A stretch of DNA of 64,000 nucleotides, taken from positions 10,930 through 74,929 of the forward strand of contig JBHPFX010000002.1 of the NCBI GenBank assembly GCA_042570925.1, given 5' to 3'. The notes beneath the pieces were generated by a model. That model made no database searches and was not told the DNA's origin. It was given only the letters and a program-made list of their open reading frames with translations. Source of the DNA: Patescibacteria group bacterium. GTDB lineage: Bacteria > Patescibacteriota > Patescibacteriia > UBA10025. A program made the translations under genes and the position numbers. Shown here piece by piece: positions 8,874-37,318 of this stretch. The stretch's first letter is position 1, and the number at the start of each line of letters is the position of its first letter.

Positions 8874-9110
8874 ATGACAAAACACATTTCGCTCGACAAT
8901 AAGGAAGTCACGTATACATTGCGCAAGAGTAGACGGGCCCGTAGAATGCGCCTTGCGGTATTTGTCGATGGTTCAGTTGTTGTTACGACGCCGTATAATC
9001 TTCGTGAGAATATTGACAGCTTTGTTGACAACTTAGATTTATTAATGTATACTAAAGTTGTCAACTACCCATATGGATATTCGAAAGCGTATTCTCAAAG
9101 AAATACATAA
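8874..9110 (+). pseudogene. truncated 5' fragment of a DUF45/YgjP-type metallohydrolase gene
   Basis: The first 142 nt duplicate the start of the intact gene at 10154. The last 73 bp (8943-9015 vs 10223-10295) differ at one position, after which the sequences diverge. Confidence 0.7.
9024..9065 (+). promoter_or_regulatory. sigma70-like promoter inside an 11-bp inverted repeat
   Basis: TTGACA (9025-9030), 17-nt spacer, TATACT (9048-9053). GTTGACAACTT (9024-9034) and AAGTTGTCAAC (9055-9065) are perfect inverted repeats. Confidence 0.55.
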
Positions 9111-10107
9111 TACCGGCGAAGTCCGGTCTGCAGATATCGTCCATGAAACCGGCTTTTCTCGCGAATATGTCGGTCGTTTTTTGCGCAAGCTCCAGCAGGA
9201 AGGAAAAATCATGTTAATCGGTAGGGCAAATCAGGCGCGGTATATTTCCACTTCGCCACAGGCGGTGGAAAATGCTAAGCGCAATATCCTGCAAAAACAA
9301 CTGATCCTAAAGAACAAAAACCACGATCTGAGCGAAGATCGTGTACTGGAGAGACTCAAGAGAGAAACAGGTATATGGGTGAAACTCGCCACCCAAGCAT
9401 CCGCTATACTTGACTACGGGTTCACCGAGATGCTCAATAATGCCATTGATCATTCAGGATCGCGATTGATCAGTATACGCCTCGATCGTGAGAAAGATAT
9501 GGTCTTTTTCGAAGTGATTGATGAGGGCGTCGGGATATTCCGAAATATTATGAGGACACGAAAGCTACGTAATGAAGAAGAAGCGATTGAGGAGCTGATG
9601 AAAGGAAAGCAAACAACGATGCCGAAGGCTCATTCCGGAGAAGGAATCTTTTTCACTTCAAAAGCTGCTGACATTTTGATTATCCAGAGTGGAAGCACGA
9701 AGCTAGAGTTCAATAATGTTGTAGGTGATATCTTTGTAAAAAAGAGACAGAACCCCCTCAAAGGTACGCGCGTCTCATTTATGCTCCGACTTCCTACGCG
9801 AAAGTCATTGAACCAGATATTTCGTCGGTACAGTGATAAAACGATGTCATTTTCAAAAACTCAGGTACGTGTCAAAATGTTCATGGCTGGGAGTGAGTAC
9901 ATCTCAAGGTCGCAGGGTAGGAGATTGACAGCTGGTCTTGATAAGTTTAAGACGATTTCCCTTGATTTTAAGGGAGTGACATCAGTCGGTCAGGCTTTTG
10001 TTGACGAGGTATTTCGGGTATTTCAGATGCGATATCCAAAAATTACTATAAAACCGATTAACATGAATAAGGCAGTAACATTCATGATTGAACGAGCGAA
10101 GCGGTAA
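9073..10107 (+). CDS. wHTH + GHKL-type ATPase + STAS-like (DUF4325) domain protein
   Basis: N-terminal wHTH (SADIVHETGFSREYVGRFLRKLQQEGKI). N-box MLNNAIDHSG, G1 box IDEGVGIF, G2-like GEGIFFTSK. C-terminal DFKGVTSVGQAFVDEVFRVF. Confidence 0.6.
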   Translation: MDIRKRILKEIHNTGEVRSADIVHETGFSREYVGRFLRKLQQEGKIMLIGRANQARYISTSPQAVENAKRNILQKQLILKNKNHDLSEDRVLERLKRETGIWVKLATQASAILDYGFTEMLNNAIDHSGSRLISIRLDREKDMVFFEVIDEGVGIFRNIMRTRKLRNEEEAIEELMKGKQTTMPKAHSGEGIFFTSKAADILIIQSGSTKLEFNNVVGDIFVKKRQNPLKGTRVSFMLRLPTRKSLNQIFRRYSDKTMSFSKTQVRVKMFMAGSEYISRSQGRRLTAGLDKFKTISLDFKGVTSVGQAFVDEVFRVFQMRYPKITIKPINMNKAVTFMIERAKR

Positions 10108-28362: not shown

Positions 28363-29166
28363 ATGTGGACAATACTTTTAAGAATTCTCAAAGATAGAAA
28401 AATTTCCCTAGCAGTGTACTGTCTCACTGGCATGGCTCTTTTGTGGATATTCATCGCCATGTTCCCAATTATTCAGGAACAGACAACTGCAATTTTAGAT
28501 GTTGTTGAGGGAATGCCAGAAGGATTTCTTAAGGCTTTTGGTATGGAAGGAGACAGTATAACTACGATAGAAGGATTTTTGGCAGGGAAGCAATACTCAG
28601 CTACCTGGCCGATTATGGTGATATTACTCCTTGTCGCTTTAGCTGGAACAGTGATTGCCGGAGAGATTGAGAAGGGATCCATCGAAATCACCTTATCCAG
28701 ACCAGTGTCGCGGTTGAAAATTTTCTTTGGAAGATACTTAGTCGGCCTATCAAGCTTAGTAGTGTTTACGTTTTTTTCTGTTTTTTCGATAGTCCCTTTG
28801 GCTGCGTTGTATAATATTGATATTGAATTTACCAATATTGTGAAACTTACCATAATCACTTTTTTGTTTGGTTGGGCCATCTTGAGCTTATCAATGTTTT
28901 TATCCACTTTATTTTCAGAAAAGAGCAAAGTATATATGATTGTTGGTGGTCTCATGGTTGGAATGTATATTCTGAATACAATTGCACTGATTAAAGAAAG
29001 TATTGATTACATCAAGTATGCCTCATTTTTTCACTATTTAGACACGGTGGGTGCATTAATATTTGATACTATTGGAACAACTTCGATTATTGTATTTATT
29101 TGTTCGGCGGTGGTATTTACCGTTTTTGGTGCATGGTGGTTTAAGAAGAGAGATATCGCAGTATAA
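28363..29166 (+). CDS. ABC-2 family permease, paralog 2
   Basis: Collinear similarity to the 27597 ORF (LRILKDRK, AGEIEKGSIEITLSRP, LFSEKSKVYMIVGG). Confidence 0.8.
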   Translation: MWTILLRILKDRKISLAVYCLTGMALLWIFIAMFPIIQEQTTAILDVVEGMPEGFLKAFGMEGDSITTIEGFLAGKQYSATWPIMVILLLVALAGTVIAGEIEKGSIEITLSRPVSRLKIFFGRYLVGLSSLVVFTFFSVFSIVPLAALYNIDIEFTNIVKLTIITFLFGWAILSLSMFLSTLFSEKSKVYMIVGGLMVGMYILNTIALIKESIDYIKYASFFHYLDTVGALIFDTIGTTSIIVFICSAVVFTVFGAWWFKKRDIAV

Positions 29167-29700
29167 AAAAAACGGCCGGAAGCAGACCGTAGAGAAAGTC
29201 CTCCCTCACCAGAGGTCTTCCTCGCATTATGAAAAGCTGAGGGTACTGCCCCGGGTCCTACGAACCAAACGGGGTGCCTTTCATTATGGGCCACAAACGC
29301 TTCCAGCCGCGAAACTCATCACTGTTGTCAAAGGTACCATTTCAAGTAGGGGGATGCCCGGAGAATACGATTCTACAATGAAGCTCCTCTCTCACCTAGG
29401 ATCTCCATATGATGTCGCGCGCGTACAAAGCAGGGCTCATCATTCAAGAGAACGAATTCTCCGTTGCCCGCTAGGATTCCCCAGGCATCACCACTCATTT
29501 ACTAGATGTATTTTTTGCCTAAGTAAAGGTAGTTGATGAGTGCTGGGCTGTCAAGTGCCTCATCATCCTAGAAAGGTGCATAAGTAAGAATGTCCGGGAG
29601 CCGCCTTTATTGACGGTCTCCCGGGGGTCGCCCGCTCTATCAAGAACGAACAATCGCTTAGTAAGTGTAGACGGACCTTGACAGATAATCAATATCTGTT
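29166..29700 (-). ncRNA. candidate large structured RNA, class unknown
   Basis: About 530 nt with no credible ORF. G+C looks higher than the flanks (by eye). At least six GC-rich helices. Minus-strand intrinsic terminator: ACGGUC/GGCCGU plus U8, equal to plus-strand 29165-29190. The 5' boundary is uncertain. Confidence 0.5.
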
Positions 29701-29785
29701 AAGGTTCTTTAAGGTAGTGGTTCTTTACATGCTCATTCACATCTCGTGCTCCGAAAGACTTAATTATTAAGTTTAACGGGGCCAT

Positions 29786-29974
29786 ATGATGAATCACGAA
29801 ACTATGGTCCTTCTCGGTGGTGTGTTACTCACATTTTCGCTCCTGCGAAAACGAACACGTCTATCGAAGAGGACTTCAGGAATGATCACATTATCGGTCC
29901 TTCTCGCCGAGTTTCTGGTATTTGCAACAGGCATCAGCTTGTTTCTACTCGGTGTCAAGGAATTCCTGACATAG
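29786..29974 (+). CDS. small two-helix membrane protein
   Basis: 62-aa ORF with two hydrophobic segments separated by a basic loop, followed by a terminator. Confidence 0.4.
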   Translation: MMNHETMVLLGGVLLTFSLLRKRTRLSKRTSGMITLSVLLAEFLVFATGISLFLLGVKEFLT

Positions 29975-29984
29975 TATTCGAAAA

Positions 29985-30019
29985 CCCCCATGCATTCTGT
30001 GCGTGGGGATTTTCTTTTT
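29985..30019 (+). terminator. intrinsic terminator
   Basis: CCCCA (29986-29990) pairs with TGGGG (30004-30008), followed by ATTTTCTTTTT. Confidence 0.5.
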
Positions 30020-30044
30020 ATGCAAAACACAGTATAATAAAAGC

Positions 30045-30974
30045 ATGAAAATAAAACTTCAACATGCAATAGGACTTGCGTTAGCAACGGCAGTAATCTC
30101 TGGCGTAGCAACCTTTGTAGCAAAAAAGGCTGTAACGGTCGTATCTGATCCGGTGGTTTTCACATTATTGAAAAATGCCATTGTAGCTATGCTACTCATC
30201 GGACTGGCGGTAGTTTTTACTAAGTTTAAGGAACTCAAGGGATTAAGAAAAAAAGACTGGACAAAGCTGATTGCCATTGGTGTGGTGGGTGGGAGTATTC
30301 CATTTATTCTTTTCTTTACCGGTCTAACGATGACAACTGCCGTTAGTGCCGGCATGATTCATAAAACCTTGTTTATATGGGTGGCGCTCCTGGCAGTGCC
30401 ATTCTTAAAAGAACGCGTTGGCTGGAAGCAAGCTGCAGCTTTTATCCTGCTTATTGGAGGTTCATTTGCCCTTGGAGGATTTAAGGGTTTTCAATTTGGC
30501 ATAGGGGAGCTGATGGTGCTGGTCGCAACGCTCTTTTGGGCGGTAGAAAATATTATTGCCAAGAAAGCTCTTGCAAATCTTTCAAGTTTATTGGTGGCTG
30601 GAGCCCGGATGGTATTTGGATCTGTAATACTTTTAGCAGTCGTAGGATTTCAGGGAAATCTGTCATTGATTGGAGGGCTTAATGCTGAACAGTGGATTTG
30701 GACACTCATCCCGGCATTATTCCTCATCGGGTATGTGACGACATGGTATACGGCTTTAAAGCATGCTCCCGCATCTCTTGTTGCCAGCTTACTCGTTCCA
30801 GCTGCATTGATCACGAATGTACTCTCACTCGTTTTTCTTGATAAAGCATTAACTGTTGCTGAAATAGGCGGCAGCATATTCTTTATTGCTGCAATTACTT
30901 TACTCGTGTGGGGAGCTAAGAAGACATCGCTCCAACAGCGGTATGCTGAAGCAACTTCCAACAACACTACATGA
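30045..30974 (+). CDS. EamA/DMT family transporter
   Basis: Ten TM helices in two EamA-like halves. TATAAT at 30033-30038 lies 6 nt upstream of ATG 30045. Confidence 0.75.
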   Translation: MKIKLQHAIGLALATAVISGVATFVAKKAVTVVSDPVVFTLLKNAIVAMLLIGLAVVFTKFKELKGLRKKDWTKLIAIGVVGGSIPFILFFTGLTMTTAVSAGMIHKTLFIWVALLAVPFLKERVGWKQAAAFILLIGGSFALGGFKGFQFGIGELMVLVATLFWAVENIIAKKALANLSSLLVAGARMVFGSVILLAVVGFQGNLSLIGGLNAEQWIWTLIPALFLIGYVTTWYTALKHAPASLVASLLVPAALITNVLSLVFLDKALTVAEIGGSIFFIAAITLLVWGAKKTSLQQRYAEATSNNTT

Positions 30975-36406: not shown

Positions 36407-37318
36407 ATGAGCATGATCGAGTTTCAGCAATTAAACGACAGAGGCCTTATACTATTGCACCGGCCAGACTTCAACTATTTCAACACAGGAATGTGCAGTG
36501 AATTGGGAGCCCAACTCACAAGCTGCGCAACAATGGGATTAAAGGGACTGGTCATTGGTACACGGCTGAGGCACTGGAGTGTTGGTGCGGACATTGACGA
36601 ACACTTCCCGGGGCCGGATAACGTCGAAAGGATGCTCCCGGCGTTTCACTCACTGATTCGACGAATAGCTACGTTCCCGATCCCGATTATCGCAGCCATC
36701 AATGGCGCCGTAATGGGCGGAGGGTATGAAGTCGCGCGTGCTTGCCGGTGGGTCGTAGCGATTGATCCGGATCACACGAAGATCGCTCTTCCAGAAATAA
36801 CGCTGGCATGCTTCCCGCCCTTTGGGGTTGCGACCTTGCTACACATCACGGATGATCCTGATGTACGAAGGCAGATTCTTCGTTTCATCATGCTTGGGCA
36901 TGTACTGAAGTGCAAGGAGCCCGATGACCTTCGTCTGATAAAAGATGCTGGGCTCATCGATGACGTATCAGTCGCTTCGCTCAATGAATTCGCTTCTGGA
37001 TTCAATTTTGATCTTCTCAACAATATTCCCAACGTGAGCGATCGATGTAATAACCCGCTCGATGTTACCGTGGGATGGATCCAGGGTGTGCTTGCCGACG
37101 ATGGTGAGGCACTCAGGTCATTAAGCCGACATGCGCTTCTTACTACGTGCGATGCACTTGGTGCAGCTGCGGCCGCATCGAATTTCAACGATGCGCTCAG
37201 TACGGCAGAAACCGAGTACCTGAACCGCATCGTTCCGCATCCTGACTATACCGAGGGATTGACGGCTGCTGGGAGGGGCCGTATACCTGTTTGGAAAGCA
37301 TCCGGATTTCCCGGATAA
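36407..37318 (+). CDS. enoyl-CoA hydratase/isomerase (crotonase) family protein
   Basis: SVGADIDE, IIAAINGAVMGGGYEVARAC and LPEITLACFPPFG. GGGGAGGA SD. Confidence 0.65.
   Translation: MSMIEFQQLNDRGLILLHRPDFNYFNTGMCSELGAQLTSCATMGLKGLVIGTRLRHWSVGADIDEHFPGPDNVERMLPAFHSLIRRIATFPIPIIAAINGAVMGGGYEVARACRWVVAIDPDHTKIALPEITLACFPPFGVATLLHITDDPDVRRQILRFIMLGHVLKCKEPDDLRLIKDAGLIDDVSVASLNEFASGFNFDLLNNIPNVSDRCNNPLDVTVGWIQGVLADDGEALRSLSRHALLTTCDALGAAAAASNFNDALSTAETEYLNRIVPHPDYTEGLTAAGRGRIPVWKASGFPG

Follow-up and report, generated by a model that had tools for sequence, protein, structure and literature searches.

A candidate large structured non-coding RNA of about 490 nucleotides on the minus strand of a Patescibacteria contig

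Large structured orphan RNAs such as OLE, ROOL, GOLLD and raiA are rare, and each of them opened new RNA biology. OLE (ornate, large, extremophilic; RF01071) is ~600 nt long and occurs in anaerobic and extremophilic Firmicutes, and ROOL and GOLLD are often located in prophages near tRNAs. OLE RNA works at the membrane as a ribonucleoprotein (PMC9723947), ROOL and GOLLD form RNA-only homo-oligomeric cages (PMC12286853), and the raiA motif RNA of ~200 nt is found in Firmicutes and Actinobacteria (PMC10861870). Stand-alone candidate non-coding RNAs (ncRNAs) of high rank have been found from GC-rich intergenic regions (PMC11109978). Here, we describe an intergenic element in a 64-kb stretch of contig JBHPFX010000002.1 (Patescibacteria group bacterium, assembly GCA_042570925.1; in the following called the window). 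This element is probably a self-contained gene for a multi-domain structured ncRNA of ~490 nt, read from the minus strand, that fits none of the described families and has been found only in a single small lineage of the candidate phyla radiation (CPR).

The element follows the second of a pair of ABC-2 permease genes. The stop codon of this permease gene is located at 29166, and a gap of 619 nt separates it from the next credible gene, whose start is at 29786. A first-pass annotation, made from the sequence alone, had noted a gap of more than 600 nt here and proposed a novel large structured RNA that ends at a minus-strand terminator. The raised G+C content on which it was partly based was confirmed, with 49.6% in 29167–29700 compared to 40.7% in the whole window; this corresponds to the 97th percentile of all 535-nt windows, though not to the maximum of 53% at 36460–36994. 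The description as free of open reading frames (ORFs) has to be modified, since a 157-aa plus-strand ORF (29063–29536) runs through the gap, but this ORF has no Pfam match and is not kept in the homologue described below. CPR genomes are small and dense, so a gene-free stretch of ~500 nt under purifying selection would be costly and is presumably useful. We assigned the following features to the element:

29167–29658, minus strand: predicted RNA body of ~490 nt, its 5′ end placed from the promoter and its 3′ end within the U-run of the terminator.
29664–29692, minus strand: putative sigma-70-type promoter with a -35 box TTGATT (29692–29687), a 17-nt spacer and a -10 box TACACT (29669–29664).
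29500–29658, minus strand: predicted 5′ domain with three hairpins (29648–29642/29635–29629; 29622–29596; 29567–29563/29539–29535).
29345–29497, minus strand: predicted central domain, closed by a 16-bp helix GGUGAUGCCUGGGGAAU (29492–29476) / AUUCUCCGGGCAUCC (29366–29351).
29172–29310, minus strand: predicted 3′ domain with a long-range helix GCGGCUGGAAGCG (29310–29298) / UGCUUCCGGCCGU (29184–29172) and the pairing GGCC (29292–29289) / GGUC (29188–29185).
29165–29190, minus strand: intrinsic terminator found by the terminator scan, with the stem ACGGUC/GGCCGU (29190–29172), a 7-nt loop UGCUUCC and a U-run to 29165.

As suggested in the first-pass annotation, homologous intergenic regions were searched in related genomes, around the relatives of the permease and of the EamA transporter encoded on the other side of the gap. 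The sole yield was one conserved non-coding homologue on the same strand, in locus L006 (positions 9977 to ~10469; Logan assembly SRR22387827, contig _78313; nhmmer E-value 4e-63). L006 is the closest relative of the window, with a permease that is 90% identical and flanking proteins that are 86–95% identical. The adjoining contig, L165, carries the small ORF and the EamA gene that lie beyond the gap in the window; the break in the assembly coincides with a perfect palindrome (at least 16 bp) just upstream of the element.

The two copies are identical at 342 of 483 aligned positions (71%), with 62% in the 5′ domain and 76% in both the central and the 3′ domain. At the four-fold degenerate sites of five flanking genes (n = 435), only 53% are identical (binomial p ~1e-15 for the excess in the element). 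Conservation is blocky, with invariant runs of 10–19 nt (e.g., ATTCTCCGGGCATCCCCCT, GGGCAACGGAGAATT, CGGCTGGAAGCG, ACCCTCAGCTTTT) alternating with variable stems. The mismatches are distributed over the three codon phases as 60/59/49, showing no codon periodicity, and indels of 1, 2 and 4 nt break the frame. No ORF is common to both copies: the 157-aa ORF is lost in L006, where the longest plus-strand ORF has 53 aa. There is no Pfam domain in any of the gap ORFs, and a six-frame chimeric query of the open stretches had no relatives among 5.8 billion proteins. Searching a 122-aa plus-strand frame exhaustively with HMMER against 1.84 billion cluster representatives gave a single marginal match, in which 27 residues are counted six times within a repeat protein; this match is a repeat artefact or due to chance. 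Judged from this alignment, the element is non-coding sequence under purifying selection.

The signals for transcription are likewise found in both copies. From the position of the putative promoter (29692–29664), the RNA would start near 29658 and have a length of ~490 nt. This promoter was read from the sequence and from the alignment to L006, as its 8 of 12 matches fall under the threshold of the promoter scan. The aligned L006 promoter, TTGACA-17-TATTAT (minus strand, 10504–10476), has 11 of 12 matches and was detected by the scan. Both promoters lie directly upstream of the first conserved block, AAGCGATTGT. At the other end, the terminator borders directly on the stop codon of the permease gene, which is convergent. 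The first-pass annotation had recognized it as a canonical terminator that works on the minus strand only, and this holds: the scan matched the minus strand only, and on the plus strand the U-G pair would become an A·C mismatch, with no T-run following. The terminator is kept in L006 (10003–9983), where a C-G pair of the stem has changed to U-A, a compensatory change. A promoter and a terminator of its own on one strand, both conserved in a relative, are what a stand-alone ncRNA gene would be expected to have.

Folding of the single sequences and of their alignment points to the same strand. With 200 dinucleotide shuffles as controls, a check proposed in the first-pass annotation, the minus strand of 29167–29658 has a folding-energy z-score of -3.4 (0 of 200 shuffles as low), compared to -1.2 for the plus strand. 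The respective values for L006 are -4.4 (again 0 of 200) and -3.6. For the two-sequence consensus, RNAalifold calculated -115.6 kcal/mol on the minus strand, where column-shuffled alignments gave -76.1 ± 5.9 (z -6.7), and -85.3 kcal/mol on the plus strand (z -3.6). Ten coding alignments of 540 columns from the same two genomes served as controls and ranged from z +0.5 to -2.2. Each of the 111 consensus pairs is a standard pair in the window as well as in L006, and among them are 17 compensatory double changes and 21 one-sided, wobble-compatible changes; sliding the partners by 1–3 columns leaves ~48% paired, with 0–3 compensatory changes. In these models a conserved fold exists, although two sequences do not settle its details.

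All six inverted repeats listed in the first-pass annotation are present in the sequence (CCCTCA 29203-08/TGAGGG 29238-43; CCCCG 29249-53/CGGGG 29270-74; CACTCAT 29492-98/ATGAGTG 29536-42; GATGAG 29535-40/CTCATC 29559-64; CCGGGAG 29594-600/CTCCCGG 29618-24; ACAGATA 29681-87/TATCTGT 29693-99). The comparison with L006 supports CCGGGAG/CTCCCGG and GATGAG/CTCATC as helices of the RNA. CACTCAT/ATGAGTG is not kept there. One pair of CCCTCA/TGAGGG is lost, and this helix would be pseudoknotted with a better-supported helix of the 3′ domain (29284/29237). In the predicted 5′ domain, conserved single-stranded blocks (AAGCGAUUGU, UUACUUAU, CACUUGACA) accompany the three hairpins. The hairpin 29648–29642/29635–29629 has compensatory changes in 3 of its 6 pairs. 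The hairpin 29622–29596 combines the outer CCGGGAG/CUCCCGG with an inner stem, which L006 rebuilds with a GCAA loop replacing AAUAAA.

The central domain contains the invariant blocks GGGCAACGGAGAAUU, UUCUCUUGAA and GCUUUGUACG. Its 16-bp closing helix has five one-sided changes, all of which remain paired on the minus strand (G-U, A-U or G-C) but would give mismatches on the plus strand. Two further compensatory pairs fall into the helix 29440–29437/29412–29409. Within the 3′ domain, the inner helix AUGAAAGGC (29284–29276) / GCUUUUCAU (29237–29229) shows compensatory changes in 3 of 9 pairs. The long-range pairings of this domain draw on the same bases as the terminator hairpin, and GCGGCUGGAAGCG is invariant. 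Position 29185 can pair with 29177 in the hairpin or with 29292 in the long helix, where the pair has changed from G-C to A-U in L006, and 29177 can alternatively pair with 29305; both substitutions fit both folds, in two sequences only.

The first-pass annotation had also drawn attention to three RUGAUGAG motifs on the minus strand. They are present, at 29322–29315, ~29441–29434 and 29566–29559, but L006 replaces all three by GGGUGUCC, AAUGUGGG and GAGCCGAA. Their recurrence therefore carries no weight, and we regard them as incidental.

We searched all families of Rfam 15, among them RNase P A and B, tmRNA, SRP, 6S, OLE, ROOL, GOLLD, HEARO, raiA, group I and II introns and riboswitches. At the gathering thresholds there was no match in the element, and the only match in the 64-kb window was a SAM-I riboswitch at 1659–1766 on the plus strand (57 bits compared to a gathering score of 44.4, E-value 1.5e-10). 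Allowing a maximum E-value of 10, the regions 28900–30100 and 29160–29665 gave only chance matches of 10–19 bits against thresholds of 40–63, and L006 9900–10540 gave none. ARAGORN found no tRNA or tmRNA in the window. The cmscan search recommended in the first-pass annotation thus found no significant family in either copy, consistent with the failure there to fit RNase P, tmRNA, SRP, 6S or group I/II introns. A literature search retrieved no account of such an RNA in CPR bacteria.

Several more specific candidates were considered and rejected. The plus strand carries GAGAAAGUCCUCC, which we take to be like the CR-I region of RNase P, as well as the motif-like GGGGUGCC and CCCGGAGAA; no RNase P model matched either strand, the would-be P4 partner is not conserved in L006, and the evidence for the strand is opposite. 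One account reports intron-split tRNA genes in Patescibacteria (PMC13011429). For a tRNA split by a group I intron, no tRNA halves and no Intron_gpI match were found in the element, and inspection by eye revealed neither a GGUUCGAAUCC-type T arm nor a D arm at its ends. A box C/D or k-turn RNA was rejected because the RUGAUGAG motifs are not conserved and the C/D-box models reached only 10–11 bits against thresholds of 40–48. A sequence resembling the 11-nt tetraloop receptor (UAUGG...CCUAGG, ~29410–29395) is not conserved in L006. For RNAs of mobile elements (group II intron, IS605 or IS110 guide, retron, MITE), there is no adjacent reverse transcriptase, transposase or nuclease, and the element is present in a single copy within the window, with no terminal repeats found.

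Taken as a whole, the following course of events is the most probable. The sigma-70-type promoter (-35 at 29692–29687, -10 at 29669–29664) would drive transcription of the minus strand, which would end at the intrinsic terminator 29190–29165 abutting the permease stop codon. The folded RNA would have three parts: a 5′ domain with its three hairpins, a central domain with its 16-bp closing helix and a 3′ domain, whose closing helix would also serve, or compete with, termination. It may then act in trans, as a protein-binding scaffold or as a catalytic or ligand-binding RNA, like the orphan large bacterial RNAs. Searching the window for complements of the invariant blocks as possible trans targets gave only short matches at chance level. 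We do not think that the RNA controls a neighbouring gene in cis. In L006, the terminator is followed by a gene for a 329-aa lipoprotein-like beta-propeller protein (8883–9872, minus strand; faint PD40/TolB-type matches), located between the permease and the RNA and without counterpart in the window. This gene has its own promoter, TTGACA-17-TACAGT (10 of 12 matches), between the terminator and its start codon, and in the window the minus strand has no gene beyond the terminator. This context is better explained by a stand-alone RNA than by a leader.

Several points weigh against this interpretation. Only two carriers were found, the window genome and L006, and they are closely related. The element is absent beside the permease in relatives at 65–81% identity (L001–L004, L007–L010) and absent upstream of EamA in relatives at 65–68% identity (L166–L176, L178, L179). 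The window promoter has only 8 of 12 matches. Optimisation of the alignment somewhat inflates the identity of non-coding sequence relative to the four-fold baseline. The test of the consensus structure is partly circular, since the two sequences also served to build it. In a less circular test, the minimum free energy structure of one copy was checked against the substitutions of the other. Only 44–46% of the changed pairs stayed paired, no more than in the slid controls, and the compensatory double changes were enriched in one direction only (14 against 2–7, compared to 10 against 4–11 in the other). The detailed fold is uncertain because of this weak cross-prediction.

The distribution was followed further by several searches. 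A genome scan with the permease yielded five loci, none with the element (0/5), and a covariance model of the central domain (R1), run on ~1.2 Mb of loci, retrieved no copies other than the two already known. In viral collections the scans had at most chance matches, and blastn against phages and plasmids gave no match. One metagenome scan used the 14-mer CTCCGGGCATCCCC, which is too short and produced at least 120 chance matches, so that absence from metagenomes is not thereby established; more specific patterns are ATTCTCCGGGCATCCCCCT, or GGGCAACGGAGAATT N{80,110} CCGGGCATCC. The relatives of the flanking proteins belong to Patescibacteria and to metagenome-assembled genomes of Candidatus Kerfeldbacteria. 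In Kerfeldbacteria, the small ORF and EamA come directly after a DNA-alkylation-repair gene, and both the ABC operon and the element are missing; in the lineage of the window, the ABC operon and the RNA lie between the DNA-alkylation-repair gene and the small ORF/EamA pair. Absence at the syntenic position in the relatives indicates that the element is dispensable, or young, outside a small lineage.

This distribution leaves some room, though little, for the explanation that survives best among the alternatives. The element could be a functionless relic that looks conserved only because the two genomes are close. It could have been left over from an intron or a mobile element, or have come in as intergenic sequence together with the inserted ABC-transporter genes. 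The very narrow occurrence in two genomes, the lack of both the ABC operon and the element in the Kerfeldbacteria relatives, and the different surrounding gene content of the two carriers are consistent with such an origin. Against it, the identity of 71–76% clearly exceeds the 53% of neutral sites and includes invariant blocks of 12–19 nt, the promoter and terminator are kept, the latter with a compensatory change, and the consensus fold is strong (z -6.7) and strand-specific. The signs of a mobile element are also missing: the element occurs once in the window and lacks terminal repeats, and we found no signals of a group I/II intron, a retron or an IS-associated RNA. The neighbouring genes do not encode a reverse transcriptase, transposase or nuclease, and there was no match in the phage, plasmid and viral collections. 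We therefore consider a relic unlikely.

A shade less probable still is a long cis-regulatory leader, comparable to a riboswitch or an attenuator. The terminator and the competing helix 29310–29298/29184–29172 would then control a downstream minus-strand gene that was kept in L006, the beta-propeller lipoprotein gene, and lost from the window. As in attenuating leaders such as riboswitches and T-boxes, the bases of the terminator have an alternative partner in an invariant segment further upstream, an arrangement that resembles a terminator and its antiterminator. The hairpin and the long-range helices cannot form at the same time, and the substitutions are compatible with either; moreover, the gene in L006 has the same orientation and starts ~100 nt after the terminator. 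However, the terminator in the window abuts a convergent gene and has nothing to regulate, and the element is nonetheless intact. The downstream gene in L006 has its own 10/12 promoter, there is no match to an aptamer, riboswitch or T-box model, and ~490 nt is far above the known lengths of riboswitch leaders. The closing helix beside the U-run could itself be a terminator.

It is very improbable that the plus strand is the functional one, as a structured 3′ untranslated region of the ABC-transporter operon. Such a transcript would end at a hairpin followed by UUCUUU, formed by the following feature:

29676–29704, no strand assigned: 12-bp palindrome CCTTGACAGATA/TATCTGTTAAGG, read from the sequence, which includes ACAGATA/TATCTGT and overlaps the -35 box of the RNA promoter.

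There is no plus-strand terminator after the permease stop codon, so transcripts of the operon probably run into the segment. The palindrome has a G·U pair and a U-rich tail on the plus strand, the L006 plus strand folds well (z -3.6), and GAGAAAGUCCUCC presumably resembles the RNase P CR-I on that strand. Yet the consensus fold is much stronger on the minus strand (z -6.7 compared to -3.6), the wobble changes become A·C mismatches on the plus strand, and the plus strand of the window reaches only z -1.2. The RNase P models matched neither strand, and the would-be P4 partner is lost in L006. Because a minus-strand gene lies between the permease and the element in L006, the element cannot be the 3′ untranslated region of that operon.

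The palindrome itself has a G·U pair on the plus strand and an A·C mismatch on the minus strand, with a TTCTTT tail on the plus strand, and was not reported by the terminator scan. At the corresponding place in L006, where the contig breaks just upstream of the promoter, is an unrelated perfect palindrome with a length of at least 16 bp. The palindrome of the window is possibly a plus-strand terminator or insulator, or an operator, and it may end read-through from the ABC operon after antisense crossing of the whole RNA gene. The first-pass annotation had counted the hairpin at 29681–29699 as part of the RNA; since the palindrome overlaps the -35 box, it lies outside.

Least probable of all, and barely worth entertaining, is a decayed or fast-evolving protein gene (e.g., the 157-aa plus-strand ORF 29063–29536, or a minus-strand ORF), for which a 122-codon stop-free stretch in a plus frame could be cited, though this is not very rare at 50% G+C (by our own estimate ~0.15 expected per 620 nt in six frames), and against which stand the loss of the ORF in L006, the frame-breaking indels without three-periodicity, and the lack of Pfam matches and relatives other than the repeat artefact. 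Altogether, we favour a trans-acting folded RNA over an attenuator, a relic, a plus-strand untranslated region and a decayed gene.

Two further features belong to the surroundings of the RNA gene or lie within it:

29526–29554, minus strand: internal promoter-like spacing, TTGACA (29554–29549), 17 nt, TACCTT (29531–29526), read from the alignment.
29786–29974, plus strand: ORF for a 62-aa small membrane protein, followed by the EamA transporter gene (start codon 30045, plus strand).

The hexamers and the spacing of the internal site are kept in L006, the -10 box has only 3 of 6 matches, and the site is absent from the scan list. It may be either an alternative start giving an RNA of ~350 nt or simply conserved RNA sequence.

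The genes around the element encode ABC-2 permeases, the small membrane protein, EamA and a DUF6390 protein (Pfam). The 62-aa ORF (in L165 at 143–331) is 52% identical to an ORF of 60–72 aa at the equivalent place in Kerfeldbacteria, and by this comparison it encodes a genuine, conserved protein. The window and L165 are identical at 184 of its 189 nt; its third-codon identity is 0.97, compared to 0.50–0.66 in the neighbours and 0.53 at four-fold sites. This near-identity points to strong constraint at the nucleotide level or to recent gene conversion. After the small ORF, a plus-strand terminator (29986–30008) has a stem that is kept in L165 via several compensatory changes. The EamA start codon at 30045 is 7 nt past a perfect, conserved TATAAT (30033–30038), which suggests a leaderless mRNA.

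In another Patescibacteria genome (L179 2741–4878; GCA_043802545.1, JAZDKX010000047.1), no gene is called over a stretch of 1.1 kb that lies upstream of EamA, beside a gene for a 335-aa RVT_1 reverse transcriptase. A retron, a group II intron or some other RNA associated with the reverse transcriptase may be located here; the stretch shows no similarity to the 490-nt element. Defence genes were observed near the syntenic ABC or EamA loci of relatives, with a CD-NTase and Cap15 (CBASS) in L010 (1–1239) and E2-CBASS/JAB/ThiF together with AbiEii/AbiEi in L166 (1105–7163). The ABC/EamA neighbourhood appears to be a variable region.

Returning to the element, the core proposal of the first-pass annotation has gained in substance: no Rfam family matches, a non-coding homologue is conserved, the consensus fold is strand-specific, and the promoter and terminator are kept, all of this resting on two sequences. 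Somewhat less firmly than for the RNA gene as such, we lean towards seeing the two copies as the founding pair of a new class of ~490-nt, three-domain RNAs in a small Kerfeldbacteria-related CPR lineage. Such an RNA would be transcribed from its own promoter and act as a folded machine (a ribonucleoprotein scaffold, ligand sensor or ribozyme), perhaps tied to the surrounding membrane-transport genes. With only two close relatives, a new RNA class cannot be regarded as established, and the element should be seen as a good candidate rather than a discovery. The gene context gives no functional clue, which likewise keeps the present case modest.

Compared to the described systems, the element resembles OLE as a large (~500–600 nt) non-coding RNA of several domains, in which variable stems separate long invariant blocks and which is restricted to one bacterial group. 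Its neighbours all are membrane transporters, and OLE is located at the membrane. It differs in that the OLE model does not match at E ≤ 10, that no oapA-, oapB- or oapC-like genes are nearby and that its k-turn-like RUGAUGA motifs are not conserved. Furthermore, OLE lies inside an operon and has hundreds of members, whereas the element appears to have its own promoter and terminator and has two. With ROOL and GOLLD it shares a similar size class, a high density of stems, the orphan status and a patchy distribution, but there is no model match, no phage gene or tRNA in the 64 kb, and no match in the viral and phage collections. Like raiA, it lies in a long, GC-rich intergenic region of an AT-rich genome and appears as a stand-alone unit with an intrinsic terminator. 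It lacks any sequence or structure match to raiA, is more than twice as long, and its two members contrast with the thousands of raiA, which show strong covariation. If the interpretation is true, the element would be one of very few lineage-specific ornate RNAs known from ultra-small, genome-reduced bacteria. A new class restricted to an uncultivated lineage would extend the short list of such RNAs and provide a compact target for in vitro probing or cryo-EM.

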